A DNA stretch of 63,164 nt, filler included, from Klebsormidium nitens (taxonomy: Eukaryota; Plantae; Klebsormidiophyceae), in NCBI GenBank assembly GCA_000708835.1. It is 7 parts of 7 records of this genome, joined end to end, with 100 filler letters (N's around TTAATTAATTAA, not from the genome) between each part and the next. Parts side by side here need not be neighbours in the genome. Positions count along the whole stretch, not along the records: positions 14,720 to 37,873 come from DF237651.1; positions 37,974 to 47,736 come from DF238078.1; 5 more parts are not named here. One strand, 5' to 3'. Numbering within the stretch: the stretch's first letter is position 1; every line of letters starts with the position of its first letter. A program made the translations under genes and the position numbers. Below the pieces are notes generated by a model. The model had not been told where the DNA came from. It did no database searches and was given only the letters and a program-made list of their open reading frames with translations. Positions 16,896 to 41,439 of the stretch are shown here, piece after piece.

Positions 16896-17146
16896 CCGAA
16901 TTGGCAGCCATGAAAGGCGCCAACACTTATTCCTTGTGTATCAGCAAACATACAAAGAGTTGCCTCAGCAACTCACTCGCAGGTCCTAGTACTAGCTCAA
17001 TTGTAGGTATCTCGAAAGTTCGACTTCATCTACGGCTCAGATTGTTCGTACTCATTATCGACGGTCGAAATTACTTGACGCTAGCAAAAGGATAGTAACT
17101 AGCATGGGCCTCGATATTGCCCTGCACCGATGACTTGTAGCATGAC

Positions 17147-18504
17147 ATGTCTGATGAGGAGGTCGCAGCTCTGCTCGCTTGCCTTTCCGGGGATAACCCT
17201 GAGATGTGGCATCGTGTTCCCGGGGAGCGCCTGCGGGGAGTGGTGGGAAGGGTCCTCTTCGAGTTGTTCAGCAATGAGGTCCCTCCGAGTGTCTCGGAGA
17301 TCTATGCCCGTCTCGTTTTCCCGGAGAAGAGCCTGAAGAAAACCCCTGACGAGGCCACCCTGAGACGCCCCCGTGCAGCGAGCAGAATCTTTACCAGAGC
17401 GCATGGGATCAGAGCCTGGGGGAGGCATTGGCCGGTTCCGTGCAGATCGGAAAGTGGGGATGGGGTAAGCAGTCCCTAGATGGCCTCGTCGCTGCCCCGG
17501 ACAAGCATCGGGAGCAGGTCTTCGTGTCCACGTGTTCGCAGCCCGTCCGAGTCAGCGTGCAGAGGGCGCAGCCCCTGGCCAAGCTCTCCAAGTGTTGGCT
17601 CTGCAACAGGAAGCTGCACGATTCCAAATCGGTCCTCGGGAGCACTTGCCGGCAGCACATCCTGAGGATGCTGAGGGCGCTGGAGTTGAAGAAGGAGACT
17701 TTCGACGACCTCCGGGCGCTCATGCACACCGATCCAGCTGAGTTCAAGAAGGTGTTCGCCGACAAGGGGTACGATGCGACCTTGAAGGAATTGAAGGCAG
17801 AGGTGCGGGACGCCCTGAGGGAAGGGACCGGGGAGAACGAATATGAGGTGAGGCACTCGAAAGAACCACTGAAATGTCCCCCTTGCCTGTTGCCTTCAGA
17901 TTCCCTGGTGGCGAAGAGGAGCTATGTGATTTGTAAAGTTTGCGACAACGTACTCAGCAACTTCCACGCCTCTCTTTTCAGGAGCCTGCTCTGCAAACGG
18001 ACATGGGCGACGACGACGACTTCATCGACGACGCAGACCTCTCAGGAGAGGTAAGTCTTACAAGTCAGAGAAGCAGCTGTGACAATGGAAGGCTCGGATG
18101 CAAAGCCGGTCATATTGCTTCGGACATCCAGAACCTCTAGTTTCTCATACTCTTTTCATCTGCTGCAGGACGCTGTAGACTCAGAGGCCCGTGAGGAGGA
18201 CGATTCGGACGATTCTGACGACGAAGTGTCAGTGAGGAACTGCCCTTGCTCGTGCCAAAGCCCCCTTTGCAGCACTTTGGATGCAGATCTAGCGTATGTC
18301 GCCGTGATTCTTCATCTTTTCTCATGGCGAAGCTTGTGCTGGATGCAGGAGGACGATGAAGGGGATGACGGAAAGTTCAGAGTGCATTACACGGGCAGCC
18401 TTCCTCCCCGTGAGAAGAGGGCCAGAAACGGCGGGCGAAGACTGAGCTATGTAGAGGTAGATTCTGCTAGTGATAACGAACTCGTCAGCGAAGAAGATAA
18501 GTAG
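17147..18504 (+). CDS. Hypothetical protein with C2C2-type Zn motif and acidic tail; three spliceosomal introns, one probable frameshift
   Basis: Phase-0 GT-AG introns at 17848-17981, 18051-18168 and ~18232-18348 join in frame to TAG at 18504. Motif CWLCNRKLHDSKSVLGSTC. A one-base frameshift near 17360 is needed to join ORF 17147-17479 to ORF 17428-18054. Confidence 0.5.
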
Positions 18505-18590
18505 GAAAGATGGCGTAGATTCGAGAGTGGATGCGAGTGTAAGAAATGGAGACAGAGACTCGAGAAGTTGTCCGTTGCTTTCGCAGACTT

Positions 18591-18690
18591 TTGTGCTCCG
18601 TTATACGGAGAGTTGTCGCCCTACTTGTGTATCCAAATCATTGTGCTCCGTTATAGGGAGAGGAGTTGTCCTACTTGTGTATCCAAATCA
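18591..18690. repeat. 50-bp tandem duplication immediately upstream of a viral-type ORF
   Basis: TTGTGCTCCGTTATA..GAG..GTTGTC..CTACTTGTGTATCCAAATCA at 18591-18640 and 18641-18690. Confidence 0.8.
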
Positions 18691-18696
18691 TCCAAG

Positions 18697-19428
18697 ATGG
18701 AATGGTCTTACTATGATCTAGTGTCAGATTTCGATGTCTTCAAGGCTGCATGGGACACACCAGTCGTGCAACGACAGCTCGAGGAGGATCTGTCGGAATG
18801 GTGCGATGCTGATGGGCTTCCACGTTGGAAGCGAGGGGATCCCATCTGGAACCTGTATAAAGATGGTGTAGACGATCAATGGGATGACATTATAGATGAG
18901 AGAGCGGCCGAGAGAACCGCAAACTTGCTACATGTAGATAATGCTGCAAAGTACTTTCAAGCGAGCATGAGCAGAGCTTGTGGAAAGACATACCGGGATC
19001 CGGATTCTGCGATATTCGAGATGCTCCATTCGAGATTGTTGGAAGAGTGCAGACCGCGATCGAATTCTTACGAGAGTCTGGTGCTCATCGGAGGTGGTTA
19101 CTGCCTCACGAACGCACTCCTGAAGACGGCTGTGATACTATATCCAGATGACCCGATCGAGATACGAGGAGTGGGACCTCACGATGCGATCGTGCTCCCG
19201 AATCGAGGCTTGGTGATCGACATCCTGGGGTTCTTTTACTGGTACGAGTTGGGAGATAAGGACTTTGCACCGGAGAACTTGTACTTCTCGGATTCAGAGT
19301 CGGACGAGGAGGAAGACTACATTGTTGAGCTCGAATACCATTCTCAGGACGAGTCCATGCGGGTAGAAGTCTGTACCTGCGACGAATGTACGTACTTTGA
19401 TGACGAAGGGTTGCCTGGACTCTTTTAA
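18697..19428 (+). CDS. Hypothetical protein (viral-type, acidic C-terminus)
   Basis: Intronless ORF with ATG at 18697 (MEWSYYDLVSDF...). Its stop abuts the helicase stop tail-to-tail, as in compact viral genomes. Confidence 0.65.
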   Translation: MEWSYYDLVSDFDVFKAAWDTPVVQRQLEEDLSEWCDADGLPRWKRGDPIWNLYKDGVDDQWDDIIDERAAERTANLLHVDNAAKYFQASMSRACGKTYRDPDSAIFEMLHSRLLEECRPRSNSYESLVLIGGGYCLTNALLKTAVILYPDDPIEIRGVGPHDAIVLPNRGLVIDILGFFYWYELGDKDFAPENLYFSDSESDEEEDYIVELEYHSQDESMRVEVCTCDECTYFDDEGLPGLF

Positions 19429-21128
19429 CACTTCAAGCACTTTTGCTTCGCAACGGCATTCCAGTCCAGGACCTTTTTGAGGAACTTGCGAGTGATCTCG
19501 TCCTTGGTCTCGCTGAAACGTCTCAAGATCTGATCGGCCGACCAATTCTGTAGCATGCCAAAGCCGTTTGCATTCGGAGACGTCGTCGCATTCATGATTG
19601 CATAGTACTTATAAACGGTCACGTGCTTCTTCGGAGTGTCCGTGTGAGACCCTCTGCGCCGCGCACGGCCGATGACTTGCTCGACACGCGGCGAATTGAA
19701 TGCCGGTTCCATGATATGCACGTGGTTCGTCCCTTTGAGATCGTGTCCCTCTCCACCGGCCGAGCTGAGCAACAACACCTTGATTCGGCCTGCGTTATAC
19801 TCATCGATCGCCTGCTGCTTCTTCGCTTTCGATTCCTTTCCCGTGACCATGAGATGCTTGATGTGCGCATCTTTGAGCATGTCAGAGAGGATCTGAACCC
19901 CAGCCTCCAAGAAGTTGCTGTAAGCTATACTCTTCTCGCCTTTCGCATGGGCGGCCTTTATCCGCTGCAGCGCTTCGACGAATTTCGGGGCGTCGGAAGG
20001 CTGACCATGTTGTCGGATGATGTTCGCCGTCCGTCGGGGAGCCGAAAAGAAAGTCATGATGTTCTTTTTCTCGTGGACGATGTCGTCGAGCTCGATGTTC
20101 GGGTTGGCATTCGCAAAGTCGAGCTGAGCTTGCCGTTGCCTCTCCGTCATCTTGACTTCCACGTTCTCCGTGGATATGGAAGGGTACTCTGGGTCGCTCG
20201 AAGAGGGTGCGTAATATAGCATGCAGCATTCCAGAGCTGACTTCAAGGTCGCTTGATCGCTCTCCAGACCGGTCGCTCCGAAATGAGCATCAAAGCTCTC
20301 CTTTGTATTTGGTATGGCGTTGTGCTTCCTGAGCATGTTTGCCAACGGTGCGATATCCGAAGGAGCGTTCTGGACCGGGGTCCCCGTCAGAAGCAACACT
20401 TTCGTCGCACCCTTGGCCTGTGCGAAGATGGCCTTGGACCTCTGCCCAGCGGCGTTACGAAGGTTGTGAGCTTCGTCCACTACCAGGAGTTTGTCCTTGG
20501 TGAGAAACGTACCTCCTTCTGCTTTCTTCGTGAAGTTTTCGAACGACATGACGTTGTACTTGTCGGCCTTGGCGTGAAACTTGCTCAGCTCCTTCTTGTA
20601 GTTTGCTATAAGCGACGCAGGGGTGACCACCACGATAGACTTTACTATCCCATGATTCATGAGAGCCTCTGCGGCTGCCATGCTGCTCAGCGTCTTTCCG
20701 GAACCCACTCCAAAGTAAAGGATGAGCCCTCGGATGCAAGGATTGAGCATCCTCTCTGCGACTTCGATCTGGTGAGGCATCAGAGGGACGCCAGGGAACT
20801 TGGAACCGCCCGCAAAGAGCTCTTTCGTCTTGGATTTCGACGGTCGAGACCTCGGCTTCGGTACGTTCGCCAGGGTAGCACCTTCTTTGCCGATGGGCAC
20901 CTTGGTGGTTGGAATCTTCTTCGTCGTCGTCTTCTGTCTGGTCATGTCTACGTCGCTGTGCTTCATCGCCAGAGCCTTGCACAGCGCGGCTTTATTCTTG
21001 TATGTGGTCCAGTTGGGCAATCCAGAGGCACGTGCCAGCACGACCAGCTCGTCCTTCTTCCACGCGTTATTACTCTTCGTCTTCCTCACGGAGCACGGCC
21101 TCTCATCGAAGCGAATGTCTTCAGGCAT
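19425..21128 (-). CDS. Superfamily 2 (SNF2/D6-D11-like) helicase/ATPase
   Basis: Motif I LYFGVGSGKT, motif II LVVDEAHN, motif III LLTGTP, motif V LLLSSAGGEGHDL, motif VI EQVIGRARR. 567 aa, intronless. Confidence 0.9.
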   Translation of the reverse strand: MPEDIRFDERPCSVRKTKSNNAWKKDELVVLARASGLPNWTTYKNKAALCKALAMKHSDVDMTRQKTTTKKIPTTKVPIGKEGATLANVPKPRSRPSKSKTKELFAGGSKFPGVPLMPHQIEVAERMLNPCIRGLILYFGVGSGKTLSSMAAAEALMNHGIVKSIVVVTPASLIANYKKELSKFHAKADKYNVMSFENFTKKAEGGTFLTKDKLLVVDEAHNLRNAAGQRSKAIFAQAKGATKVLLLTGTPVQNAPSDIAPLANMLRKHNAIPNTKESFDAHFGATGLESDQATLKSALECCMLYYAPSSSDPEYPSISTENVEVKMTERQRQAQLDFANANPNIELDDIVHEKKNIMTFFSAPRRTANIIRQHGQPSDAPKFVEALQRIKAAHAKGEKSIAYSNFLEAGVQILSDMLKDAHIKHLMVTGKESKAKKQQAIDEYNAGRIKVLLLSSAGGEGHDLKGTNHVHIMEPAFNSPRVEQVIGRARRRGSHTDTPKKHVTVYKYYAIMNATTSPNANGFGMLQNWSADQILRRFSETKDEITRKFLKKVLDWNAVAKQKCLKC

Positions 21129-21175
21129 GTCCGATTGATGTGTGAGTATGTTAATTTACACTCGAGAATAAAATC

Positions 21176-21406
21176 TCAAGCCGAGATGAACCAGTTCCAC
21201 ATGTGAGAGAACCAGCTCGACGTACGTTCTATCTTCACGCTACCTTGTGACATTCCGATCGAATGCGATTCCGATGCCTTTTCTGAGGGAGGGGTGCCTT
21301 CTGAGAGCACCGCTTTACCTGGGAGTGGCTTCTCGACGCGAGATGGGAGAGGCGGCTCGACCGGTTTCGGCGGCTTTTGCGCGATGGTCTCGCGTTTCTC
21401 ATCCAT
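21176..21406 (-). CDS. Small hypothetical protein
   Basis: 76-aa ORF co-oriented and closely packed between viral-type genes; no domain recognised. Confidence 0.3.
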   Translation of the reverse strand: MDEKRETIAQKPPKPVEPPLPSRVEKPLPGKAVLSEGTPPSEKASESHSIGMSQGSVKIERTSSWFSHMWNWFISA

Positions 21407-21432
21407 CTCTGCATACTATATAGCCACGAAAA

Positions 21433-21885
21433 TCATTCATTTGGGATCTCGGGACTCTTTGCATTGGAGCTGACGCTGGGCCAAGGGAAACTTCGAAATT
21501 TCGAAACACCACCCTGAATGGTGTTTCCTTCCCTCTCGAATCTGGACCACGGCAGGGTGGCCGTTCCGCCCTCGAACGGCACCACTTCGAGGGGGGCAGG
21601 AACCTTTGCCTTTTCTCGCACGGGCTCGCCCCGGACGTACTTCCGTGCGTCGTCCTTCTCCTTCGGCTTCGCGTCATCTCCGCTCGCCATCACTCGAACC
21701 TCGACGAGGGGGCTCGCGAAGACCGTCTCTCTGACCGTTGGGATGGGAGGCGAAGGGGGCTCGCGGCTCGAGGCGGCCGGCGGTGCACTCGGCCTCTTCT
21801 CTTCGTACGATTCGAGCGGTTCGTACTCGAAAGCATCGCTTTTCGCTGGTATCTGGAAGCAGCAGAGTAGTCGGACGAGGTTCAT
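21433..21885 (-). CDS. Hypothetical proline-rich protein
   Basis: 150-aa ORF (MNLVRLLCCF...) divergent from the SET gene; no domain recognised. Confidence 0.45.
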   Translation of the reverse strand: MNLVRLLCCFQIPAKSDAFEYEPLESYEEKRPSAPPAASSREPPSPPIPTVRETVFASPLVEVRVMASGDDAKPKEKDDARKYVRGEPVREKAKVPAPLEVVPFEGGTATLPWSRFEREGNTIQGGVSKFRSFPWPSVSSNAKSPEIPNE

Positions 21886-21944
21886 GTTCGCCTTGAGAGA
21901 TCCACCTAAAACTTTCGAGCATCTGCGACGCGCGCGTTCGAATT

Positions 21945-22568
21945 ATGTTGGCAGTAAGATATGCACTTTCGCCAAGCATGTCGTTTGCGTTCCACTACCG
22001 AGGCAAGTCCGGAACGAGATTCGATTGCGACTTGAAGTGCGAAGGTTGTGCTGGGAAGCTCGAGGACGGACGCCGGTGCACACGCACCGTATGCATAGGG
22101 TTACCTTTTTGCTGGCAACATCTCATGACGTGCAAGGACGACGAACACGGTCTCAAGATTAAGAAGTCGCCTATAGCAGGCAAGGGGTTATTCGCATGGA
22201 GCAAGAAGGGAGGCAGGGATATCGTGTATAAGCCACGCAAAACCATCACAGGATACGAAGGCGAACGGCTCACTATATCTCAACTGACAAGACGATTCGG
22301 AAGCGACACGGCACCATATGCGATCGGTCTGAGTCGCGGAATAGTGCTAGATGCTGCATGCAGGAGAGGTGCTGGCGCTATAGCCAACGCTCCTCGGAAC
22401 GAGAGAGAAGAGAACGCGGCGTTTAGGATACGCGAGAGAGGTGGAAAGCATATAGTGGAACTGGTGGCTCTCAGAAACATCAGACACAACCAAGAGATCC
22501 TGTGCGATTACGGTGATGAGTATTGGAAGCACGCACAGGGTAAGCATTATACGAGAGGAAAACTGTGA
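21945..22568 (+). CDS. Viral SET-domain protein-lysine methyltransferase with N-terminal Cys/His finger
   Basis: LKIKKSPIAGKGLFA (SET motif I), AIANAP (where SET proteins usually have NH), LVALRNIRHNQEILCDYGDEYW (C-terminal E-x-x-x-D-Y-G motif). N-terminal C...RC.....G...C..H finger. Confidence 0.85.
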   Translation: MLAVRYALSPSMSFAFHYRGKSGTRFDCDLKCEGCAGKLEDGRRCTRTVCIGLPFCWQHLMTCKDDEHGLKIKKSPIAGKGLFAWSKKGGRDIVYKPRKTITGYEGERLTISQLTRRFGSDTAPYAIGLSRGIVLDAACRRGAGAIANAPRNEREENAAFRIRERGGKHIVELVALRNIRHNQEILCDYGDEYWKHAQGKHYTRGKL

Positions 22569-22679
22569 TAGTCGCATATGTTATCGTATTTTACACAAAA
22601 TTACAAATACTGCGTCTCTTATTCTGCTACCGGTAGTCTTGCAAAGGACCTAGTCGTTCAGGTCGTGCGAGAATGACGG

Positions 22680-23072
22680 CTCAACAACCAGCTGACCCGT
22701 CTTTTCGCGCACGCCAAGGCGTTCAAGAACGACATCGAGTTCCTGGGGGCGTACAGGAATAACGCGCAGTGGAAGGAGTGGAAGCTGCTGGTGGAGAGCG
22801 TAGACGAACTTCGAAAGAAGCCGATCGACGAGATTCCCATGGAGGACATAGTGGTCACTCTGGATGAGATCGTGGAGGTTGATGAGGTCGTGCGGGCAGA
22901 AGTCGATAGGGTCAAGGCAGAAGAGAAGAAGAGAAAGAGAGAAGAGGCAGAGGAGGAAGAGAGGAAGAGGCAGAGAGAGGAGGAAGATGAGGAGGAGGAG
23001 GAGGAGGATGAGGAGGAAGATGAGCAGAATGAGGAGGATGAAGATGAGAATGGAGAAGAAGAAGAGTTTTAA
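22680..23072 (+). pseudogene. Acidic/coiled-coil protein, 5' end disrupted or unclear
   Basis: The frame RLNNQLTRLFAHAKAF...EEEF* is open from ~22678 but follows an in-frame TGA with no ATG. Long poly-Glu/Asp tract. Confidence 0.35.
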
Positions 23073-23247
23073 GTTAGATTGTGAATAGTCAGTGGCAGAT
23101 GAGGAAAAGAAACTGAATAGTCTTGGCCTGTTGAGCCTTGTCTCGCCTTATACTAGTGATTGACAAGATGTAAAGTATTCGCGTACTGCTATTTACATGA
23201 GTTCAATATGAGTAATGTACTTCACTGGTTTGTCTCTATCTCGGAAT

Positions 23248-24537
23248 CTAAGTCTCTCCTACTCCTGAATTGTTCAGCCTAGGAGCATTCTGTACACCAT
23301 GTATACGAAGCGCAGCCTCGTCGTATGCTCGACCCGCTTCCTCGGCTGTCTCGAATGTTCCGAGATGCACCTTCATGCCTTGGTCTCTGATTTGGGCCAC
23401 CCACTTGTCTCCAACCTTCGAGCATCCGACTATTTCTGTGTCTCTCTCCTTCCTCTTCTTGTTCACCTGAGGGCCTGTCGACTGCGAATTCGTCGATCTG
23501 GGCGCGTAGCACAAGTTCTCAGCGCGGTTATCCTCGTTCTTCCAGTTCTTGTGATGTATGATCATGCCACTGTTCTCAGCTTCGTCCACCTCTTCCACTG
23601 TCTTCTTCTTCCTCATCACGTAGTCGCTCAGGTTCTGCTTCGTGCTGTTGAAATATACGTTTCCCCCGCGGGCACTGTTCGCGCTGAGTCCGGTCGCTTT
23701 GCCATCATCGTTGACCATCAGTTCCACGAATACGTCATCGTCTACCAGCACATCGATTGTCTGCTCGCGGGTGACTTTCGCCTTCAACACCGCTGCTCCC
23801 ATCTCGTTCCGCGAGATCACGAGGTTCTCTCTCTGAGTCCTGACGTACTCTGCCAGGGCTTTCTCGCACGCCTCCTCGGCCTCCGAGAAGGTTTCGTAGG
23901 TACCCTTGGCTAGAACCTGACCGTTCCTCTTCATATTGTGAATGAAGAACTTCTTCCCACTCGGCTTGATCGGGAATCGCTGCTGCTTTTTGATGCCCGA
24001 TTTTGCATCGATGTCTGCGAAACCCTCCGGCTCCTCGACGCCATTCAAGTGCGCCTGGTCTCCATATGCTCTCTTGCAGAGGTCGTACTTGTAGGCGGCC
24101 ATGGCTTCTTCTGGATAGTAACCCAAGACCTCGCCGTTCAAAGTCGCGCGCCATCTCCTCTCTGGCTTACCCTCCTTCATCTCGAAGACGCCCAGGTATG
24201 CAGAGGTTCCAGAAGCCTCCTTTTTCTTCATCGCGTGTGCAGCTGCAGGCGTGCAGATCTTCAAGTTCGATTTCGTGAGGTTGAGGTGATCGCCATCTAC
24301 GAAGGTTACCACGTCCGACCCCTTTGGCTGCTGTCCGATTACCATGTGACTCAATCTGGTGAAAGGGTCTTCCAGGGTCTTGGACTTGACCACATACTTG
24401 GAGCTCTTGTTTCCTTCTGTGGCATACCTCCAGCAGAAGGGCCTGACGCGGTCCTCGTCCTCCTTGTCCACGATTGCGTAGACAGACTCTTTACCATCCT
24501 TGACCTCGATGAGCGCCGTAGATGAGGAGCTTGCCAT
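23248..24537 (-). CDS. HNH endonuclease with AP2 DNA-binding domains
   Basis: HNH-like segments [16 protein letters not shown] and [16 protein letters not shown]; AP2 domains ([24 protein letters not shown]; [32 protein letters not shown]). Confidence 0.85.
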
Positions 24538-24763
24538 GGTTGAGACAGTTGACTTTTTATGAGGCCGGAAGACGCAGAAAGCTTGCTTTTATAGTCTGTC
24601 CAGAAGGAGATTGCACGCGACAAAATGAGCGTCCGAAAGCAAGCACCCGAAAAACATGCGTCCGAAACGTTTTCGGATGCTGACATTTACCAGACAGGGC
24701 CACTCTCGCATTGTTCGGACACGTTCTTCGGGCGCGAGTCACTTCCCTTCTATATAGGAAGCG

Positions 24764-25627
24764 TTGCACCCGTCCGAAATCAGGCAGGTAAAGATCATGA
24801 TGAATACTTGTCAAGCTACGATCGCGCAAAACGAACGCGCGGGGCAGCGTTGTAGGACTAAGGCATCCTGTGGAAAGTATTGCGGGAAGCACTTCAAGTT
24901 ACACAGCCAGCTTGACATCATCAAGGAACGGGGACAGACCCCGTGCAACAACATACGCAGAAAGTTCAACAAAGGCTGTCAACTCGTAGTGCCTCCCGGG
25001 TCGAGGCGTTCGTATTGCAAGACATGTTGCGACGACGTTCGGGCGAAAGATCAGATGAGAGAACAGAAGAAACGCGCAACTTCCCCCGGCGAAGCACTGC
25101 AAGAAGGCCTCTTGAGATGCAATAACGCCCGTTGCTTGAAGCTTTATCCAGTGGACAAGTTCGTTGTTCGGGATGGGACGGGCTGGTGCGAAGATTGTCG
25201 CATTCACAGGCAGGCCCAATACAAGGAGATGATCGAGGCCAACATCAACTTTCGTCTCAGTCGAGCCCTTCGCTCGTACGTGAAGACGACATTCAAGAGA
25301 GTCCCCGGTGTGAAGAAGTCCAGCAAAGGAGAGGAACTCCTCGGATGCACTCACGCTTTCGCAAAGGCCTGGATAGAGAACCAATGGGAAGAAGGGATGA
25401 ACTGGACCAATTACGGAACGACGGACGGTTGGTGCATTGATCACATCAGACCAGTCGCCTCCTTCGACCTGAGCGACGATGAGCAACAGAAGCAGTGTCT
25501 CCACTACACGAACATGCAACCGCTGTGGGCGAAAGAGAATAGGGAGAAACACGATCAGGTAGATTGGGAGGGTGCACAGCATCAAGCTCAGCAACGGGTG
25601 AAGTTCTTCGCATCGCAGGTCTCATAA
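24764..25627 (+). CDS. HNH endonuclease (phycodnavirus/phage type) with N-terminal Cys-rich fingers
   Basis: WCIDHIRPVASFDL...CLHYTNMQPLWAKENREK is a typical HNH core. The likely start is the MMNTC ATG near 24797. Confidence 0.8.
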   Translation: MHPSEIRQVKIMMNTCQATIAQNERAGQRCRTKASCGKYCGKHFKLHSQLDIIKERGQTPCNNIRRKFNKGCQLVVPPGSRRSYCKTCCDDVRAKDQMREQKKRATSPGEALQEGLLRCNNARCLKLYPVDKFVVRDGTGWCEDCRIHRQAQYKEMIEANINFRLSRALRSYVKTTFKRVPGVKKSSKGEELLGCTHAFAKAWIENQWEEGMNWTNYGTTDGWCIDHIRPVASFDLSDDEQQKQCLHYTNMQPLWAKENREKHDQVDWEGAQHQAQQRVKFFASQVS

Positions 25628-25718
25628 ATGAGTCACTGGCATGACTCAGATCTGAAACGGTGAATATTGTTTTTATTCAGCACGCAGTGCCCGTGCTGAG
25701 ATTTCGATGGATAACGAC

Positions 25719-27833: not shown

Positions 27834-28095
27834 CTCGACTGACCCGTCACCGAGAATATACGTTACCCTGAGAAAAAAAATCTCGATGAACGCGGGTGCA
27901 GCAGGAGTCGTACTCATACCATGATCGAGAGGCCAAGTGCATTCACGAATTCGTCTGCATGGGGAAAGTAAGTTGAACTTACTGTCGTGCCACTTGACCG
28001 ACGAGCAAGCTCGGATCGTCTGATCGTAGGAGGCGCGTTCAGATGACCAACAATATTTCATAGGAGTATAGGAGTAATGTCCGTTCTCGAACACG

Positions 28096-29707: not shown

Positions 29708-29784
29708 GAACTTCAGCTACACCCGCGCTTGTTGTCGTAGAAGATATATGCCAGCTCTCTCTAGGGCTGACGGGAAGGGTTAGG

Positions 29785-30483: not shown

Positions 30484-30623
30484 CATCATCGATGGTTTCG
30501 GACGCCATTTTTCGGACGCTTCGTAGATATAGGAAGAGCACCTCCACCTGATAATAGCGACATTCGGACGCGCTCGTCGATATAGGAAGAGCACTCTCCC
30601 TTAGCAGTCAGTTCGCTTACTCG

Positions 30624-31733: not shown

Positions 31734-31773
31734 GGCAGCACAGTTATTCGTCAGGAACAGTAACGTCGTAGAT

Positions 31774-32496: not shown

Positions 32497-32511
32497 CTAT
32501 GGGTTATTCGC

Positions 32512-33304: not shown

Positions 33305-33470
33305 TTACCATTTTCGCCCAAACTGTCGCCCGTACCGGGCGCTTATTCGGACGGAAAATGAATAATAATACCGGATTAGGTCCATACGAGTACGGACTGG
33401 TACCGGCTATCCGCGAACCGCCGGGTTATAGGTTCGAAAGCCTCCGGTATCCGCGAATAATCCTCAAACT
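33305..33470 (-). ncRNA. Putative Fanzor omegaRNA scaffold (guide expected in the flanking MTase sequence)
   Basis: ~165 nt between the Fanzor stop and the transposon end, with several stem-loops (GTCCGTAC-TC-GTATGGAC; TACCGG/CCGGTA) and a TTCGCGGATA-(G)CCGG direct repeat. The position matches TnpB/Fanzor guide-RNA loci. Boundaries are inferred. Confidence 0.6.
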
Positions 33471-35298
33471 AGCGGCAGAACTCAGCCGGCCGAACTCTTC
33501 CTCCCAGCCTGCTCTGGAGCAGCCTCAAGATGTTCCGGGCGGCGTTCACGTCGCGGTTCACCGTCATGCCATAACAGCCACTGTTTCTGCAGTGGAGCAC
33601 ACTGTGAACTTTTACGGTCTTCACCACCCCATCCTTGCACCGCTTCTCCGAGTACTGGTTGTGCAGCTGCGTCTTGCAGTCGAAGTGGAGCTTGCTCGTC
33701 CTAAATTCGTCTACCGAGACCACCCTGCAGTGCTTGCGGAGCTCCCGCTCCAGCCGCTTCACGGGCCCAGAGGGTGATCCTCTTATAATCCCGGCAGCGT
33801 CCTTGTTGGACCAGTCTCCGAACCCCACGACTGTCCTCTTGCCCATGCGCTTGGTGATACCCTTGCAGATCTCGTGCAACTTCTTCTGTGCATAGATGTA
33901 CCGCTTGGACTTGAGACCCCTGAACCCCTTCCTCATGTGGAAGCTCAGGAGCATATCCAGGCGGGGAAGCATGAAGCGCACGTAGTCTAGCAGCTTGGAG
34001 CTCTCAGGCGTTTTCTTGCTGGGCATGTTGCGGATCGCTTCGAGGACCTCAGGACTCTGCTCGTACCAGTGCCTGATCCTTGCGTTGCTGAGCTTGTACT
34101 TGGCATCGTGGTAGAATTCTCGCGTCGAGCAAGACAACTTCTCGCCTTGCTCGTTCATCATGACGAACAAATCCCGCCTCCTCCCCGGGTCAAGGCCCCA
34201 CAGCTCCTCGTCACCGGTGAGATCAGGAAGCACCCCCTCTCCAGCGGAAGACCTTGGTTTGGGCTTCCTCAACACCATGCACACGGCCTTTCCATCCGTG
34301 AGGATCTCACCCGCAAACTTTCTGTTGCACGTCTCAAACTTCTCGAGGTTGAACAGCTGTCTCCAGTAGTCGTCTGCCACCTTCCTGAACTCCGGTCCAA
34401 ATGCTGGCAGCTTGGCGCCTCCTCTCTTCAACAAGCCATATAGGCCATTCGTGCACATCTTTAGGTGACTGCACTCGAAGCCGCTCTTGGTGGGAAGGAG
34501 GCTAAAGAGTCTCAGCTGCTTGCCCTTCTTCAACTCAGCTTCCGACAGAGGATGGTGCGACTCCATGTAGCGCAGGAACATGAATTGCATGGGCATGAGA
34601 AGGTGAGGGGTGGAGTCTGCTCGTCCGGTCGTGGCTTTTGGAAGCATTGCACGGTACTCCAGGACCAACGGGTCATCACCGTTGTACTCCTCTGTCAGCA
34701 TGTGTCTCATCTTTGCATAGCATGCTGAGCCATCGAGCGAGTACTTGTGCTTTAGATATCGCTTGAAGCGCCGGTAGAAGTTCGTAGCAACAGAGTTTCG
34801 GGTGCAAGTCGCCATCTGGAGGCTTGCATTCTGGTACCAGCCGGAGGCGAGGTTCTTGCTGTCCGGTGGCACATACTCAGCGGGGCGTGATGATACATAG
34901 AGTTCCACCGTCTCCCTGAAGAAGAGGTCTTTGATTGCGCTCTTCTGCCTCCCGGTGACACTGACGGCTGACAAGCATCCATAGAAGAAGGACTGATCGA
35001 GAGGTGGTACTTCTCTATCGAGCTCACACATGCGCAATACATGCAGGTTGGCGAGAAGGTAGGCCTCGCAGATGGCCTTGTTCACTTCCTTGAGCACACT
35101 CTCGAGAGGGAGGGCCTTCGCAGCCTCCTTGCAGAAGCTGTTCCAGCTGGTCTTTACGACTGTACACTCGGTCTCCCTGTTCCTCTGAGCACGGAGTTTG
35201 ACATCTTCGCGAGTTCGAGTGGGGTCCCTGAAGAGCTTGCATATGTAGCGCAGACATTCGTGCTCGAGAGCGATGTCTGGGGGCTTCTTAGGCGGCAT
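33469..35298 (-). CDS. Fanzor: Fanzor1 (eukaryotic TnpB-like RNA-guided RuvC nuclease), 609 aa, intact
   Basis: ATG at 35298 (MPPKKPP...). RuvC-I LWGLDPGRR, Fanzor1-type VVGFGDWS, shifted catalytic Glu in VVSVDEFRTSK, Zn finger (HFDC...LHCRNSGC), RuvC-III NRDVNAARNI. Confidence 0.92.
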   Translation of the reverse strand: MPPKKPPDIALEHECLRYICKLFRDPTRTREDVKLRAQRNRETECTVVKTSWNSFCKEAAKALPLESVLKEVNKAICEAYLLANLHVLRMCELDREVPPLDQSFFYGCLSAVSVTGRQKSAIKDLFFRETVELYVSSRPAEYVPPDSKNLASGWYQNASLQMATCTRNSVATNFYRRFKRYLKHKYSLDGSACYAKMRHMLTEEYNGDDPLVLEYRAMLPKATTGRADSTPHLLMPMQFMFLRYMESHHPLSEAELKKGKQLRLFSLLPTKSGFECSHLKMCTNGLYGLLKRGGAKLPAFGPEFRKVADDYWRQLFNLEKFETCNRKFAGEILTDGKAVCMVLRKPKPRSSAGEGVLPDLTGDEELWGLDPGRRRDLFVMMNEQGEKLSCSTREFYHDAKYKLSNARIRHWYEQSPEVLEAIRNMPSKKTPESSKLLDYVRFMLPRLDMLLSFHMRKGFRGLKSKRYIYAQKKLHEICKGITKRMGKRTVVGFGDWSNKDAAGIIRGSPSGPVKRLERELRKHCRVVSVDEFRTSKLHFDCKTQLHNQYSEKRCKDGVVKTVKVHSVLHCRNSGCYGMTVNRDVNAARNILRLLQSRLGGRVRPAEFCR

Positions 35299-35345
35299 GA
35301 ACGCCACCTTATAGACTACTTTTAAGAAAAAAAGTCTCGGAGATT

Positions 35346-36248
35346 TTACGCGCCTGGGCCTAGGACTCTCTGGAACAGTCTGGAGCACACGGCGGGGGTG
35401 AGCTTCTGCAAGCCATCCTCTAGAGCGGCCCTGAGGTCTGCCTCGTTCCTGGGCGCTACCCCACTGATGTGAGTCCTGAGGATATTGAAGCAGAGCTCTA
35501 CCGGGTTGAGATGTGGTGCATAGGGAGGCAGGTACTCCAGGTCGATTGCAAGTTCGCCTGCCGCTTCTGCAATCGTAGGCAGCCCTCTGCGCTTGAGAGC
35601 GTTGGTGCTCTTGTGGATGGCAGCGTTGTCCAGGACGATCTTGGAGCCCATAGGCAGCTCTTGTAGGAACCTCAGAAACCTGACAGCGTCCACAGAGCCC
35701 TGGTAAAGGTTCCACTTGACCACCCCAGTGGAGCTGATGCAGAGGAGGAGTGAGAACTTCTTGCCCCTAGGGCCAGGTCTCCTTACCACTGCTCTGGACC
35801 CACGCTGGCTCCATGCATAGCCGCGGATATGATTCATGAAGAAGCCACACTCGTCCAGAGAGAGGACATGCGGTCCCAGATCAGCTTGGATGTCATTCAG
35901 GAAAGCCTGACCCCTAGCCTCGTTGAACTCGCAGTAGGCCTTGGTTGCTTTCTTGAAGGAGAGAGTGGAAACTGCAACTCGCACATTGTGTTCGTCTCTC
36001 AGGAACTGTGCAGCTTGCTCGAGTGTGGTGGTTGGATTCTGCTGCATCTATGCTGCCAGGCTGATCATTACCAGTGGAGAGAGCTTTCGGAGGTGCGCAG
36101 TGTTGCGCTCCCGGTCTTGCAGTCTAGGGCTTCTGATCCACCTCTGGATGGTGCGCTTGGACCTCTGCAGAGATTGGCCTATAGCATCATCATCCATGCC
36201 AGACGCCAACATCTGCCTGAGGAAGGCACGCTTCTCGCTCATCTTCAT
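35346..36248 (-). pseudogene. IS630/Tc1-like DDE transposase with an in-frame TAG at 36048-36050
   Basis: HTH N-terminus (MKMSEKRAFLRQ...IGQSLQRSKRTIQRW), then VLSLDECGF, IVLDNAAIHK, YLPPYAPHLNPVE. It reads LAA*MQQ where the second copy reads LATYMQQ. Confidence 0.88.
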
Positions 36249-36500
36249 GGTGGCATGTGGTGAAAGTGACAAGCTCATGCTTGAAGGGATGGTACATGAG
36301 TAGGTATAGCTTACAGGGATACACTTGGTCATATAGTGTACCGTTATGTCGTAATGATTTGATTAATACGAAAAAAATAGGTCCCAACCTCGCGGTTTCG
36401 CGCGACACTTTTGGCAAAAAAAGGTTAAAAAAGGTGGCAGAAAGTTTGGAACCGGTGAGAGGCGCCATTCCCTTCCGAACCAACCAAAAAATACTGCGAG

Positions 36501-37037
36501 ATGGCGGCAGATGAGGCGAGCAAGAAACAAAGACTGGCGCAGCTGAAAACAGAGTGGCAGGAGTATGCGAAGGAGATACCTGCAGAGGGGAGCAGTGACA
36601 CCACTGAAGACATCTGCATGCGCCTTATGGCATCTGTCATTCTGGCAGAAAACCCAGAAGCGAGAGAAACTGACATATTGCGCCACTTCTTTGACCCCAC
36701 CCTCGGTCTTCGGGTTACGGCCTATGTAGAGGACTACGTGCTCTGGTTCCAATATCGTTTTGGGTACATTGCTGATGCCTACAAGAACGAAGACAAAAAG
36801 GACTTCAAGAGATTCATGAGCTACAAGAGGCACAATCCATATGTAAGCGAGCGTGGTCGGAAGGTAAATCTCAACAATGGCCATTTCTTGACACAGCCAG
36901 GTGAACAGAACCAGAGGTTTGGAGCAGACTTTATCGTAGGAGACGTTGGGTTAGACTTTATTTGGGAGTTTACGGATTACCTGCTCAAGGCAGAGTATCC
37001 AAACAAGCCAGGTACCAAGACTCCTAGTACTAAATGA
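36501..37037 (+). CDS. Hypothetical cargo protein (178 aa) inside the composite transposon
   Basis: Clean intronless ORF (MAADEASKKQRL...) between the inner transposon end (~36428) and the second partial transposase copy; no family recognised. Confidence 0.6.
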   Translation: MAADEASKKQRLAQLKTEWQEYAKEIPAEGSSDTTEDICMRLMASVILAENPEARETDILRHFFDPTLGLRVTAYVEDYVLWFQYRFGYIADAYKNEDKKDFKRFMSYKRHNPYVSERGRKVNLNNGHFLTQPGEQNQRFGADFIVGDVGLDFIWEFTDYLLKAEYPNKPGTKTPSTK

Positions 37038-37171
37038 GGGGTTGTTCGTTAGTTGAAACAATGCTTCTCATTGAACATGAGCTAGAGCTGCATGAGTGGT
37101 CTTTACTTCCAATCTTCAACCTGCTTCACCTGCTCTTAGCTGCGCAGAGACAGCACATGTTCGCAGCTGCT

Positions 37172-37596
37172 TCAAGTGACAGCAAGTCGCACACTGTTAT
37201 CAACTCCCAGTTCCTGTGCAGCTTGCTGGCGTGTGGTGGTTGGATTTTGCTGCATGTATGTTGCCAGGCTGATCATTAATAGTGGAGAGAGCCTTCTGAG
37301 GTAGGTAGTATTCAGCCCCTGGTCTTGCAGTCTAGGGCTTCTGATCCACCTCTGGAAGGTGCGCTTGGACCTCTGCAGAGATTGGCCTATAGCATCATCA
37401 TATACGCCAGAGCCAGCAGCTGCCTGAGGCTTTTTGCTCATCTTCATGGTGGCACGCCATACATACTCGGGTATGTATGGCTTGCAAGGATGCACATGGT
37501 CATATCACGACACTTTTATGATGTAATATAGGTTTGATGAATTAAAATATGTCCCAACCGGGCGGTTTTGCGCGACACTTCCGACAAAAACCGTAA
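37172..37596 (-). pseudogene. Diverged second copy of the transposon 5' end and transposase N-terminus
   Basis: MKMSKKP...DDAIGQSLQRSKRTFQRWIRSPRLQD...MQQNPTTT parallels 36248-35990. The end sequence GTCCCAACC..GCGGTTT.GCGCGACACTT occurs at both ~36381 and ~37547. Confidence 0.8.
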
Positions 37597-37740
37597 TAAT
37601 GATCGATTGTAGATAATCTGCCGTAAGAGTACGAACGTCACAGCAAAAAGTTGTCTTGGCTCCATGATTGGCCTCGTATGTTGCGAGTGCATGGGTGTCA
37701 ATGTCAATACCGACCGAATGGACCAAACCGGCTTTTACAG
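37597..37740 (-). pseudogene. C5 methyltransferase N-terminal part (motifs II-III)
   Basis: KAGLVHSVGIDIDTHALATYEANHGAKTTFCCDVRTLTADYLQSI joins in frame to KGTVIDVVVASPPC when 33305-37596 plus one TA is removed. Motif I (FxGxG) was not found upstream. Confidence 0.8.
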
Positions 37741-38232
37741 TTTGTCCAGAATAAAATGGCAGACGAGAAATCGGCGTCCGAAGGTCTCGTCCGAGAGCTT
37801 GGGAGCATCGGAGCATCCGAAAGGCATATCACAGCGGAAGCATCCGAAAGCAAGTATCCGAAACAAGTATCCGNNNNNNNNNNNNNNNNNNNNNNNNNNN
37901 NNNNNNNNNNNNNNNNNTTAATTAATTAANNNNNNNNNNNNNNNNNNNNNNNNNNNNNNNNNNNNNNNNNNNNCCGCTTATGTTGATTGCAGGGGCGATA
38001 GATAGGAGCACAGTGTCCTCGTCACTCAGATAAAAGGTGTTCTCTGATGGAATTCTCTTTATTTCGTAGACGAGCCAGTCAAGTGTATTCTGATGCTGAC
38101 CGTGAACCGCCAGCACGAGACGGCTCGTGCTGCGGGCCATCATGCCCAGGGTATCTTGAATGAGATCAAACATTTGAGAGCGGTTCATAAATGTGCTTAT
38201 ATAGTCAACTATTTTCCTAGCTCTGACGTAGG

Positions 38233-39219
38233 ATGGCAGGGGTTACAGCTTCCTCCGTTTATGCTATCACGTGCATGTTCAATCCTTGTGGATATCGTGT
38301 ACGGTCCGAGCTCCACAAGAAGTTCGCTGCACACATCGAGTCTCTCGGGATCCCACTCATAACGGCAGAGTGCGCCACAGGCGACCAGGAGTTTGTGGTG
38401 ACTCTTCCAAATGAGCCGAACCATGTGCAGGTGAGGAGCCGGTCAGCACTTTTCCTTGAGGAGAACCTTCTTAACTTGGCATTGAAGAGACTCCCCCCCT
38501 CCTGCGAGTATGTGATTTGGACGGACGACGACCTCACATTATACTCTGAGGACCTGAAGGAGAAGACCATTGATGCTCTGCAGAAGCACCCAGTCGTTCA
38601 ACTGTTTGAGACTTGCAAGGACCTCGATGCAGACGGGGACGTAATGAAGCTGCACAAGAGCTTCGCGGCGGCCTACAGGGACGGCGAGCCCCTGTTTAAG
38701 CCTGCGTTCCGTGCCCCGTGGGCTAACATGTCCCACACAGGCTACTGCTGGGCGGCGCGCCGCTCCGTGCTTGACGCTTGCGGGGGTTTTCTTGAGACAG
38801 CCATCCTTGGCAGCGCGGACGGGTTGATGGCACGCGCAGTAATCGGAGAGGTGGGAGCCGGGATCGCAAAGGGCTTGAGTGACGGATACAGTAGACCAAT
38901 TCTTGAGTGGCAAGAGCGGGTATTGAAGGCCATGGACGGAGGCACGCTGGGGTGCGTTGTAAGCGAGGTCGGACATCACTACCATGGGAGCAAAGCTTCG
39001 CGACAATACTCAACACGTGGCCAAATTCTGATCAAGCATGCATTCGATCCGAGCACGGACCTGATAAAGAACGACTATGGTGTGTGGGAGTTCAAGCACG
39101 ATCACAAGCCCAAGCTAGAAAGAGATATATGGAAATATTTTCAACAACGTCGAGAAGATGACGGAGCCAGGTTCGATGAAACCCCATTATCTCCATTCAC
39201 ACCTACTCTTGATCGGTGA
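38233..39219 (+). CDS. Putative glycosyltransferase-like protein (giant-virus type)
   Basis: EENLLNLALKRLP...YVIWTDDD (DxD-like), PVVQLFE, HTGYCWAARR...GGFLETAILGSADGLMA. Family assigned by motif resemblance only. Confidence 0.6.
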   Translation: MAGVTASSVYAITCMFNPCGYRVRSELHKKFAAHIESLGIPLITAECATGDQEFVVTLPNEPNHVQVRSRSALFLEENLLNLALKRLPPSCEYVIWTDDDLTLYSEDLKEKTIDALQKHPVVQLFETCKDLDADGDVMKLHKSFAAAYRDGEPLFKPAFRAPWANMSHTGYCWAARRSVLDACGGFLETAILGSADGLMARAVIGEVGAGIAKGLSDGYSRPILEWQERVLKAMDGGTLGCVVSEVGHHYHGSKASRQYSTRGQILIKHAFDPSTDLIKNDYGVWEFKHDHKPKLERDIWKYFQQRREDDGARFDETPLSPFTPTLDR

Positions 39220-39600
39220 TGGTACATTTGAGTAATTCATATCCTTGAAGTTCACAGATGCTAGAGGCCCGTACAGGACCAGGGCCGCCTTGTCGTATGC
39301 ATCGGCAACTTGGACCGCATCCTTGAAGGAGCCGAGATCGTAGCGCTTGCCCTTGCTAATGTATGCCCGAAACCTACCAGTCATCTTATTCTTACAGACA
39401 CCCTTGTACTCGCAAGAAAAATCGTCAATATGCTAGTCGATTGCAGATACTCATCAAGCATTCGTTTGACCCGTACAAGGATCTCGTCAAGAATGAGGAC
39501 GGTGTGTGGGAGTTGCCCGACCACAAGGCAGCGCTGGCAAGAGATATGTTGAAGTTCTTCTACAATCGCCGCGAGGACGACGGACTCATGGATGAACCTC
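39187..39600. pseudogene. AP2-domain fragment (minus strand) followed by a duplicated fragment of the glycosyltransferase C-terminus (plus strand)
   Basis: FRAYISKGKRYDLGSFKDAVQVADAYDKAAL (AP2). RLQILIKHSFDPYKDLVKNEDGVWE...RREDDG parallels RGQILIKHAFDPSTDLIKNDYGVWE...RREDDG. Confidence 0.65.
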
Positions 39601-39602
39601 CA

Positions 39603-41156
39603 CTACCCGGAAAACTCCTTCAAAGATAGGCCCACATAGCCCCGGCAGCGCTTCGAGTTGCGAATAAACTCCTTTGCCCTGAATTGCTTGTGCATAAACA
39701 CTCCGACACGTCTCATGCTGAGGACATCTTCGCTCTCGTTTGTGATGGCCAGCAGACGATCGCGGAAATCTTTCGAAGTAACATACTTTGACTTTTCAAG
39801 GATGCAGTGCTCTTCGATGAAGCGGCTGATCAAACCCTCTGCATAAGCTGCAATGGTGGTCTGTGCCCCCTCTGTCACTGTGCCCTCTCCATCCTCCTGA
39901 ATTTCGGGTGTAACCTCCTGAAGCTCAGGAATAGTATCAACATGGGGAACTTGAGCAAGCTCCTGAGCCCCGTGAAGCTCATGGGTCTCACTTGCCTCCT
40001 CGTCCACAGGCTCTTCAACATCAGGGGCGATCAAGGGCTCTGTCACTTCTGGCACAAAATCCTCTGTGGCACTGTGCTCACTTGCATCAAGCAAAGACTC
40101 CCCGTACTGTGTAACAATCTGAAGTCCCTCTGTCATCTGAGCATCCCCTGCCTCGGTGGCAGTGACGAGTCTCGTCCTTCTCCCGGTCTGCTTCGGAGCG
40201 CACTTGAGCCTCAGCTCTTCCATCTTCAGTTCATGATCTAACTCCGCCAGTCGCACTTTGGCCTGAATGTCAGCTTGCCGGGTCTTCTCCTTGGCTAGCA
40301 AGACCTCCTTGCTCTTCTCGTCGTTGGAAGAGCCTCCAACGTAAAGGTGTTGAATCGTATTTTGTGTCTTGTGAGCCGCCCGCTCTGCAATTGCTAGGAC
40401 AATGCCCTTGTCGACGTGATCAGGTAGGCGGATAATCTCTCTGTGCACAGTACCCCCAATCTCAACCTCTTGGTGGATCTCTTTTATCAGCGGGTCACCC
40501 TTGAAGGTATCCTCTGCATCGCGCGGCCGATCAGCCTTCCATGCCATCTCCAGCCTATACGAATAAGGAGGCTTGAAGTGATTCCGGTGGGCCAGATTGC
40601 GCTTTGGGAGGTTGGTGCTGCAGCCGTACTTGTACAGCTTCGAAGTCTCGTGGATGCAAGCGAGATACAGACAGCCCTGCCCCTCGAACAGCAACTCAAG
40701 CGCCTTCTCACGCGACAGTTGTTGGCTTGGGGGGGTGGTAGTTAACTCCACGTATGCGTCCCGAATGGCCCTGAAGAATGCTCTGACCCGGTCGCCGGCC
40801 TCTGTGCGTGCCTCCATTGCAAAATTCTCGAACGCATCAGTCGTCAAGTAGTACTTGTCAGGGGCTGGCCCCTTCCGAGGTACCTCCACACTCGGTGGGG
40901 AGTAAGCTGAGCTGCCGTCAACAAACGTGTAATCGGTGTTCTCCGTAAAATGGGCCTTTAGGGTACGGAGAGCACTATCCTTCCTCCCATACTGCAGCCA
41001 CACGTGTGCTTCATCGAAATCAATCGGGAAGCGCTGACCCTTGTCGTCAAAGGCCTTTACAAACACGGAAGCTAGCTGCTGGTAGCCCTCCAACTGACTC
41101 ACATCGATCGCATGAACACGGGAGTGTCCCAAGACACGGCTCGTCAAGCTTGCCAT
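39603..41156 (-). CDS. AntA/MSV199-like N-terminal domain + GIY-YIG/T5orf172-like domain + D5-like C-terminal winged helix
   Basis: FPIDFDEAHVWLQYGRKDSALRTL...TDY...YYLTTDAFENFAM; CLYLACI...YKYGCSTNLPKR; C-terminal RFIEEHC...VTSKDF...RGYVGLSLK. Confidence 0.65.
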   Translation of the reverse strand: MASLTSRVLGHSRVHAIDVSQLEGYQQLASVFVKAFDDKGQRFPIDFDEAHVWLQYGRKDSALRTLKAHFTENTDYTFVDGSSAYSPPSVEVPRKGPAPDKYYLTTDAFENFAMEARTEAGDRVRAFFRAIRDAYVELTTTPPSQQLSREKALELLFEGQGCLYLACIHETSKLYKYGCSTNLPKRNLAHRNHFKPPYSYRLEMAWKADRPRDAEDTFKGDPLIKEIHQEVEIGGTVHREIIRLPDHVDKGIVLAIAERAAHKTQNTIQHLYVGGSSNDEKSKEVLLAKEKTRQADIQAKVRLAELDHELKMEELRLKCAPKQTGRRTRLVTATEAGDAQMTEGLQIVTQYGESLLDASEHSATEDFVPEVTEPLIAPDVEEPVDEEASETHELHGAQELAQVPHVDTIPELQEVTPEIQEDGEGTVTEGAQTTIAAYAEGLISRFIEEHCILEKSKYVTSKDFRDRLLAITNESEDVLSMRRVGVFMHKQFRAKEFIRNSKRCRGYVGLSLKEFSG

Positions 41157-41439
41157 GGTGGCTGAAACAGTGCAATATACAACATACGCTTGTCCCTAAG
41201 TAAGAACGTACGCGATGTGCATCCACGTAACCGGTGCAATGGCCGCGGTGAGATCGCGCGCGACACGTCGGCCGCGAAGAGTTGCGAGGGATCCCTTCCG
41301 GAGCGATACGTGAGGGTAAGCCGCCCGCGACAAAGTTTTGAGGGATCCCTCCGGTGCGCGATAACAAGGGTACGCCGCCCGCGATAGAGAAGCGGGAGCC
41401 GCGCGCGATGTTGTGGTTTGTCTATGCACCCACTGAACA

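Follow-up and report, generated by a model that had tools for sequence, protein, structure and literature searches.

What is the block of virus-type genes around a major capsid protein (MCP) gene in the assembly of the streptophyte alga Klebsormidium nitens: DNA that a giant virus left in the algal nucleus, part of a dormant virus, or a free virus sequenced along with the culture? The MCP block occupies 20.7 kb (17148-37873) on one piece of a 63,164-nucleotide stretch, hereafter the window, in which seven pieces from seven records of assembly GCA_000708835.1 stand end to end. We put the probability at roughly 0.8 that the block is part of a Klebsormidium giant virus which was integrated recently and is probably silenced by methylation; fragments of this kind have already been reported for the species. 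Since giant-virus DNA in K. nitens has been published, the surprise is limited; what this analysis adds is a capsid gene split by introns but restorable, a Fanzor insertion that is dated and whose empty allele is known, and a soil sequence closely related to the block.

For Klebsormidium flaccidum (= nitens), Gallot-Lavallee and Blanc (2017, PMC5294986) counted five DNA polymerase, six ATPase, six MCP and five VLTF3 genes of Phycodnaviridae-like character and argued for several distinct inserts, not contamination. The capsid gene of the window is probably one of those six. As of 2017, streptophyte algae, which comprise the lineages sister to land plants, had no reported nucleocytoplasmic large DNA virus (NCLDV) according to the same study (PMC5294986). 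Giant-virus endogenization in Klebsormidium is mentioned elsewhere (PMC11244446).

An initial annotation had described a largely intact giant-virus segment in a streptophyte genome, adjoining without a gap a host-type retroelement on its left and satellite DNA on its right; it overlooked two introns in the MCP gene and the Fanzor insertion. Its choice of host stands, the genes for the helicase, AP2-HNH and MCP all matching annotated K. nitens models at 99-100%. The right-hand junction does not. Scanning the window showed its six 100-base gaps to be one identical artificial linker, 44 N's on either side of a 12-mer that stops every one of the six frames; the two gaps that the initial annotation had named (14620-14720 and 37874-37973) are of this kind, so that the order of the seven pieces is no evidence of linkage and nothing is shown to be joined across them. 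Virus-type genes fall on piece B (14720-37873) and, within piece C (37974-47736), on its left part. The satellite, with a 110-bp unit (41474-42328), sits on piece C beyond the linker at 37874, and a spliced, presumably host gene with uridine kinase and UPRTase exons (PF00485, PF14681; 8400-13700, minus strand) sits on piece A; neither is linked to the capsid gene by the sequence at hand.

A capsid gene with two predicted group I introns

Is the capsid gene broken? Its long open reading frame (ORF; 25633-27279) begins without the customary start and closes with a foreign tail, and the missing ends of the gene lie beyond two insertions. Both insertions follow a U and end in G, and excision of both yields 420 codons without a stop, whose product is identical to the intron-less 420-residue relative P0131 at 304 of 420 positions, free of gaps.

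27821-27833, minus strand: MCP exon 1, 13 nt; predicted N-terminus the same as in P0131, P0005 and P0006 over 9-10 residues
27381-27820, minus strand: MCP intron 1, 440 nt, ORF-less, predicted group I; Rfam RF00028, with P1, P10, P3, P4 and P7
26161-27380, minus strand: MCP exon 2; PF16903 and PF04451
25749-26160, minus strand: MCP intron 2, 412 nt, ORF-less, predicted group I; U at the 5' splice site, terminal G, and P1, P8 and P9 pairings
25719-25748, minus strand: MCP exon 3, the last 9 codons and the stop; same C-termini as P0005 and P0006

The protein is a double jelly-roll with PF16903 and PF04451, which makes it a Nucleocytoviricota MCP and bears out the hallmark gene named by the initial annotation. 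Its closest solved structures are two capsid proteins of PBCV-1, MCPv1 (PDB 8h2i, E 7e-110) and the major capsid protein (3kk5/5tip, E 1.6e-82).

Both insertions are predicted to be self-splicing group I introns. Intron 1 has a P1 with a U.G pair at the 5' site, a P10, a fully paired P3/P4/P7 core and a terminal G, its two splice sites both being fixed by P1 and P10. Intron 2 has a P1 with a U.G pair, a covarying P3/P4/P7 core, a P9 and a terminal G, and its core aligns with the MCP intron of locus L015, which itself scores 30.1 bits in Rfam. When intron 2 was set beside six distinct introns from viral contigs (10 genuine among 16 pattern matches), P3, P4 and P7 were 97.7% paired across the seven and changed on both sides in 7 of 19 pairs, an extent reached by 0 of 500 shuffles; slid controls gave 24-43% pairing. 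We take intron 1 to be IC1-like and intron 2 to be IE-like. Spliceosomal splicing was considered and rejected, as neither insertion begins with GT.

Several points weigh against this assignment. Intron 1 scores 36.1 bits against RF00028 (E 6.4e-7), under the gathering score of 50; intron 2 was not detected by Rfam; and at the gathering level Rfam has no match anywhere in the window. Minimum free energy z-scores are weak for the two introns, 0.15 and -2.0. The structure of intron 2 was derived from the same sequences in which its pairs were counted, which makes the slid control lenient, and its P4 contains one mismatch. In separate pattern searches for intron 2, one pattern had 0 matches and another found 120 loci, none with blastn similarity to intron 2.

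Introns of this sort recur in related genes. Viral contig L405 carries one of the intron 2 type at the same codon, and 10 of the 16 IMG/VR loci with the intron 2 motif have introns in or beside MCP genes, five of these being identical. MCP sequence accompanies the intron 1 core motif in at least 27 of 125 IMG/VR loci, 45 of which are short-flanked; the intron 1 site itself was not seen among the 27 MCP-bearing loci inspected. Presence varies among close relatives, P0121 and P0122 reading into intron 2 and P0001 lacking it. The C-terminus of P0001 leaves the normal ending a few codons later, in a manner that resembles read-through into another intron as in L189 and L203. More broadly, group I introns in loci L145-L269 and L390-L405 occupy many sites among the codons that open or close giant-virus MCP genes, with more than one intron in several of these loci.

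The public model of the gene is wrong: GAQ90918.1 joins a truncated MCP to the neighbouring AP2-HNH gene because the introns split the capsid gene. Intron 2 contains no back-up tail for the protein, and reading through it unspliced produces a frame of 548 aa. Intron-split capsid genes can thus be scored as broken when they are not. Just beyond the 3' end of the MCP gene, and convergent on it, lies an endonuclease-like gene (24797-25627) that is free-standing and has been swapped in a soil relative described below, though that relative retains intron 2; it could be a homing partner.

The Fanzor insertion, the soil relative and further sequencing runs

A second interruption lies in a C5 cytosine methyltransferase gene, at a duplicated TA. 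RuvC D/E/D residues, a zinc finger, a linked DDE transposase, the TA duplication and inverted ends together identify a Fanzor1 carried by an IS630-Tc1-mariner element.

33305-37596, minus strand: IS630/mariner-Fanzor composite of 4292 bp, inserted between two copies of a TA (33303-33304, 37597-37598); inverted ends imperfect
33469-35298, minus strand: Fanzor, 609 aa; PF07282, RuvC acidic residues (D/E/D) and zinc finger; nearest PDB structure that of Spizellomyces Fanzor1 (SpuFanzor1), E 3.9e-9
35346-36332, minus strand: IS630-type transposase; PF13358 (DDE_3), one stop at 36048-36050
36501-37037, minus strand: ORFan within the insertion
37179-37590, minus strand: 5' fragment of a second transposase
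32512-33304, minus strand: C5 cytosine methyltransferase, 3' part; PF00145, E 6.5e-43
37597-37873, minus strand: C5 methyltransferase, 5' part; first motif missing or degenerate, the piece terminating in a 14-bp repeat

The 5' flank of the insertion ends in TTA, and the 3' end of the Fanzor is structured (z -2.9). In 36330-37596 the ORFan is surrounded by a pair of nested 5' ends and by two starts of the transposase, which agree with each other at 75% identity across 454 bases, an arrangement suggesting that one mariner copy may have inserted in or beside another.

Nine sequencing runs from four studies hold part of 18001-28000, and four of them (X1, X3, X5 and X6) were compared over 14720-34719. 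Run X5, a soil metagenome, contains a relative of the block at a depth of about 5-7; the eight pieces listed for it match at 93-99.6%, and the stretch 17197-18136 at 99.6%. This relative carries both MCP introns and has the empty transposon site, a contig passing from 33304 into the letters from 37599 on. It is without the Bro-N gene (joint 28023-29719), and other sequence replaces the region of the 24797 gene (joint 24654-25566). Cover in X5 is absent or near-absent over 14720-16720 (gag), 22724-23390, 28060-29393 and 30728-32061; joints and loose ends alone were taken as evidence. Its differences from the window are balanced, with 111 A>G plus T>C against 98 C>T plus G>A. Ends of this transposon family also occur in the run beside other flanks (33296, 33331), so the host may be present in it; the relative may be either a free virus or part of another host strain. 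A relative so close hints that the virus may still circulate.

Further relatives surround the capsid protein. In a quick, midpoint-rooted tree of 69 rows (the window, 15 close relatives and P0008-P0060, four rows trimmed), exon 2 of the window, the K. nitens MCP types P0127 and P0007 and 13 proteins from JGI, ENA and Logan fall on one side of a branch with a Shimodaira-Hasegawa-type support (SH-aLRT) of 98. The group was picked after the tree had been seen, and the tree left out P0003, P0123, P0124, P0126, P0128, P0130, P0132, P0061-P0120 and named viral references. These 16 proteins split into three subgroups, each with a K. nitens member; they may stand for three viruses, or else for a single virus type with paralogous capsid genes, and the JGI, ENA and Logan rows are possibly host-derived. 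One Logan record of 39,255 bases is the source of both a full-length relative of the helicase (P0182, 89%) and an intron-2-bearing MCP (99%), which probably share one syntenic contig. Outside this clade environmental MCPs reach 45-57% identity only; MCP scans of viral and metagenome contigs found nothing nearer than 52-53% among the best 80 of 533 and of 509, and a helicase scan retrieved no relative.

What do the other runs add? X1 and X3, from one sample that is possibly the source of the window, have long contigs with 0-1 differences, including an X1 contig with 0 differences across the Bro-N region; the frameshifts in Bro-N are therefore real. Run X6 comes from a different sample and study that carries this species label too; it covers all 30 of the 30 bins of 14720-34719, and C>T or G>A accounts for 549 of the 580 places at which it is changed. 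We infer a bisulfite-type library. In all eight listed pieces the differences (15-45) stay below the number of non-CG cytosines of either strand and near the CHH count, a pattern compatible with protected CG and CHG methylation. Viral-origin genes in K. nitens are reported to be enriched for methylation (PMC12344493), and silent transposons to bear CHG and CHH methylation (PMC5890265).

At its left edge the block meets a long terminal repeat (LTR) retrotransposon.

14720-17147, minus strand: multicopy LTR retrotransposon, 5' part, truncated where the piece stops; LTR terminus at 17147, gag (CCHC knuckle) at 14913-16199 (zf-CCHC, E 0.002)

The element, which ends in CA on the plus strand, joins the block without a gap at 17147/17148. 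LTR copies run from 17147 into a different flank in X1, X3 and X6, with a summed depth of 43-96 over the LTR; in X1 and X3 the ends of the LTR and Fanzor elements alike run into other flanks, hence both are multicopy in that sample. At 14976 the X1 and X3 contigs have two bases more than the window, and the end of the gag frame there may be an assembly error.

Gene content beyond the capsid

How much of a virus is present? Fourteen recognisable genes lie in 17148-41200, the MCP gene and 13 of giant-virus type or virus-associated mobile genes, which makes the initial count of about 15 a fair one. Eleven of the 14 have unbroken frames when the MCP is counted after intron removal, in keeping with the earlier remark that most frames are intact. 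The three broken genes are Bro-N, which runs over three frames, the transposon-split methyltransferase, and the larger transposase copy with its in-frame stop (36048-36050). As a statement about reading frames, then, "largely intact" holds; as one about a viral genome it does not, PolB, A32, D5, VLTF3 and RNA polymerase families being absent from all 67 of 67 stop-free frames of at least 140 aa in the window. With the MCP as its sole hallmark gene, the segment is a fragment and not a viral genome. Pfam families on piece B comprise MCP, SNF2 helicase, SET, AP2-HNH, Bro-N/T5orf172, RING, two NUMOD-HNH, C5 methyltransferase, TnpB-type nuclease and DDE_3 transposase, and 6 of the 14 genes are nucleases or transposon genes.

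17148-18600, plus strand: unassigned DNA; short ORFs, GT/AG-like motifs as possible spliceosomal signals, no Pfam match; of host or viral origin
18697-19428, plus strand: ORFan, 243 aa; no family found
19425-21128, minus strand: SNF2-type superfamily II helicase, 567 aa, intact; PF00176, PF00271
21945-22568, plus strand: SET-domain protein; PF00856, E 3.6e-4, slightly below the curated cut-off, no PDB match
23248-24537, minus strand: AP2/HNH endonuclease, 429 aa; PF13392, PF00847
24797-25627, plus strand: endonuclease-like ORF, convergent on the MCP 3' end; tblastn to viral contig L050, E 4.5e-14
28096-29707, plus strand: Bro-N/T5orf172 gene over three frames; PF02498, PF10544
29785-30483, plus strand: RING-finger protein, 232 aa; PF13639, SWIM-like motif by eye
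30624-31733 and 31774-32496, plus strand: two NUMOD/HNH endonucleases; PF13392, PF22083
38233-39219, plus strand: GT2-like ORF, piece C; Pfam E 0.008 only
about 39215-39630: AP2 and GT fragments, piece C, virus-like
39603-41156, minus strand: MSV199/T5orf172-like ORF, piece C; closest Atlas clusters are nucleocytovirus MSV199/T5orf172 proteins (0.89), a lead only
start at 14620, 37874 (to 37973), 47737, 50973, 56487 and 60443, no strand: artificial linkers

The helicase too has been misread in the public annotation, where GAQ90916.1 (P0302) fuses it to the upstream ORFan under the host label "chromodomain helicase DNA binding protein 8". The left part of piece C (38233-41156) is virus-like and stands apart from the MCP block on a separate piece, its GT2-like gene being tentatively viral. 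The database copy of that gene (P0137) lies on a 14,560-base record and the MCP and helicase models on a 44,696-base record, which fits separate records.

The rest of the window offers observations of its own. Two further runs of N's, of 667 and 298 bases, resemble ordinary scaffold gaps. On piece D, 47837-50428 holds a Ty3/gypsy-like gag and protease, with 223 bases repeated on either side of the 298-base gap. Four unrelated repeat families, tandem or dispersed, occur at 479-2230, 41474-42328, 43912-44427 and 46159-46387 (about 135, 110, 193 and 81 bp), and a 531-aa open frame at 61570-63162 (plus strand) has a SWIM-like Cys/His motif by eye and no Pfam match.

Origin of the block and comparison with known systems

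How might such a block have arisen? We envision that a virus infecting Klebsormidium, with both MCP introns and several free-standing HNH genes already aboard, left DNA in the host nucleus. Two mobile elements would have come in later, an LTR retrotransposon at 17147 and, at a TA within the methyltransferase gene of the virus, one of the IS630/mariner-Fanzor kind, and Bro-N and the transposase would have acquired breaks. The host would mark the viral DNA with CG and CHG methylation. If the capsid gene were transcribed, two ribozyme splicing steps would restore the 420-aa protein, and failure to remove intron 2 would leave a long junk tail. Of all this, the sequence itself shows the genes, the intron boundaries with their core pairings, the transposon insertion with its unoccupied counterpart, and the artificial linkers; integration, the sequence of events, methylation and splicing are our inferences. 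The insertion appears recent because CpG observed/expected is 1.08 over 18697-33302 (0.69-0.77 in the mobile elements) and because the X5 relative is 93-99.6% identical with balanced transitions. An endogenous giant-virus segment in a streptophyte is still the best reading, as the initial annotation had it, though not one new for the species (PMC5294986), and integration into a K. nitens chromosome is likely.

Several observations count against this account. Both ends of piece B are linkers, and no sequence ties the block to a single-copy host gene. The gap-free left junction is real, and the contigs that cross 17147 have just 28 letters on the LTR side, under the 31-letter bar. That junction is not by itself proof of a host border, as had been assumed: LTR and Fanzor-mariner elements sit inside an active giant endogenous viral element (GEVE) of Chlamydomonas (bioRxiv 10.1101/2024.09.03.611062), and the closest Atlas clusters of the Fanzor are 56-93% viral, so neither element need be host-derived, and at best they mark a shared nucleus. 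A host-virus juncture was noted on just one K. flaccidum contig (PMC5294986). The methylation reading depends on a guessed library type and on eight listed pieces that passed an 88% filter, a threshold that selects for unconverted sequence. Depth in X1 is 14.4-16.2 for viral and 14.8-18.9 for gag contigs, a comparison of little weight since these are neighbours and X1 and X3 are possibly the source.

A separate alternative, somewhat unlikely in our estimate, is an old, vertically inherited insert, with X5 and the close relatives representing the same insertion in other Klebsormidium strains and their differences having arisen in the host. The 99.6% identity over 17197-18136, perhaps host flank, fits this idea, and the same transposon family at other X5 flanks suggests host DNA. 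The clean gene swaps in X5, where Bro-N is absent and the 24797 gene replaced, and the lack of intron 2 in P0001 rather resemble viral strain variation, the full-length helicase relative at 89% suggests selection, and there is no C-to-T bias. An old insert would alter the age and the interpretation of X5, not the endogenous nature of the block.

Alternatively, the block could be part of a complete, latent and inducible provirus that short-read assembly has fragmented, the remainder lying on other records, as in the Punuivirus of Chlamydomonas reinhardtii. We regard this as improbable, despite the 11 open frames, the capsid gene that splicing could restore, the absence of CpG loss, the close X5 relative, a cargo (LTR element, Fanzor-mariner, HNH genes beside the MCP) that equals that of Punuivirus, and the presence in the assembly of all core genes but D5 (PMC5294986, Table 1). 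D5 is unlisted for the species and viral gene order is highly rearranged between the K. nitens inserts (PMC5294986); Bro-N and the methyltransferase are broken, both being probably dispensable, and X6 shows its methylation-like pattern. A free or persistently infecting virus sequenced along with the culture, with LTR and Fanzor elements of its own, would explain the missing tie to a host gene and the near-identical soil sequence, and virus-borne Fanzors and LTR elements are known, but it is very improbable given that a second study's sample has the block with a silencing-type pattern, that an X1 contig confirms the Bro-N breaks without a difference, that the assembly holds several divergent copies of single-copy viral genes (PMC5294986), and that three K. 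nitens MCP types occur in one clade.

A recently integrated fragment also allows a wider and more tentative view, which we consider rather doubtful as a whole: the insert might capture a recent state of a giant virus that continues to circulate among streptophyte algae, with X5 and the 89-99% JGI, ENA and Logan proteins as other strains that trade HNH genes and capsid introns. Because the Fanzor stands behind a TTA motif, its guide would point at the intact viral methyltransferase allele; it could then cut incoming virus or home into it, and RNA-guided interference would thereby arise from an endogenous viral fragment. In practical terms, the 16-protein MCP clade and the near-identical soil sequence provide concrete primers and a habitat for isolating an NCLDV of streptophyte algae.

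How does the locus compare with known systems? With the K. flaccidum inserts it shares the species, a Phycodnaviridae-like MCP, virus-gene-dominated contigs and several distinct inserts; group I introns, a Fanzor insertion and environmental relatives are not mentioned in the portion of that text examined (PMC5294986). The Phycodnaviridae label follows that study and the nearest PDB matches, the capsid proteins of PBCV-1 being the best solved relatives. Group I introns in the capsid gene of a Klebsormidium viral insert, a Fanzor/IS630 insertion in its methyltransferase, an intron-bearing soil relative and the X6 pattern were not found in a literature search whose scope excluded most subscription journals and bioRxiv supplements. 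KnFNuc, the Fanzor1 of K. nitens (PMC10530073), is likewise an intron-less Fanzor1-like nuclease, multicopy in this species, and its reported target-adjacent motif equals the TTA at the 5' flank here; identity of the two is not shown, an N-terminal motif having no match in the supplements of that study that were searched. Punuivirus also has IS630-Tc1-mariner and Fanzor1 elements flanked by TA duplications, along with an LTR retrotransposon, and its MCP is accompanied by free-standing HNH genes (bioRxiv 10.1101/2024.09.03.611062). It is, however, 617 kb long and contiguous, makes virions and resides in a chlorophyte, whereas what is present here, as known from its sequence, is a fragment of 20.7 kb in which the MCP is the sole hallmark gene. 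As here, introns of the self-splicing type interrupt the MCP or other core genes of faustovirus E12 (PMC6247863) and mimivirus (L425; PMC2688009), and chloroviruses have group I introns in TFIIS and other genes (PMC7019647); in contrast to these, the K. nitens capsid gene is an endogenous copy in a streptophyte, with two ORF-less introns at its extreme ends, bounded by outer exons of 13 nt and 30 nt.

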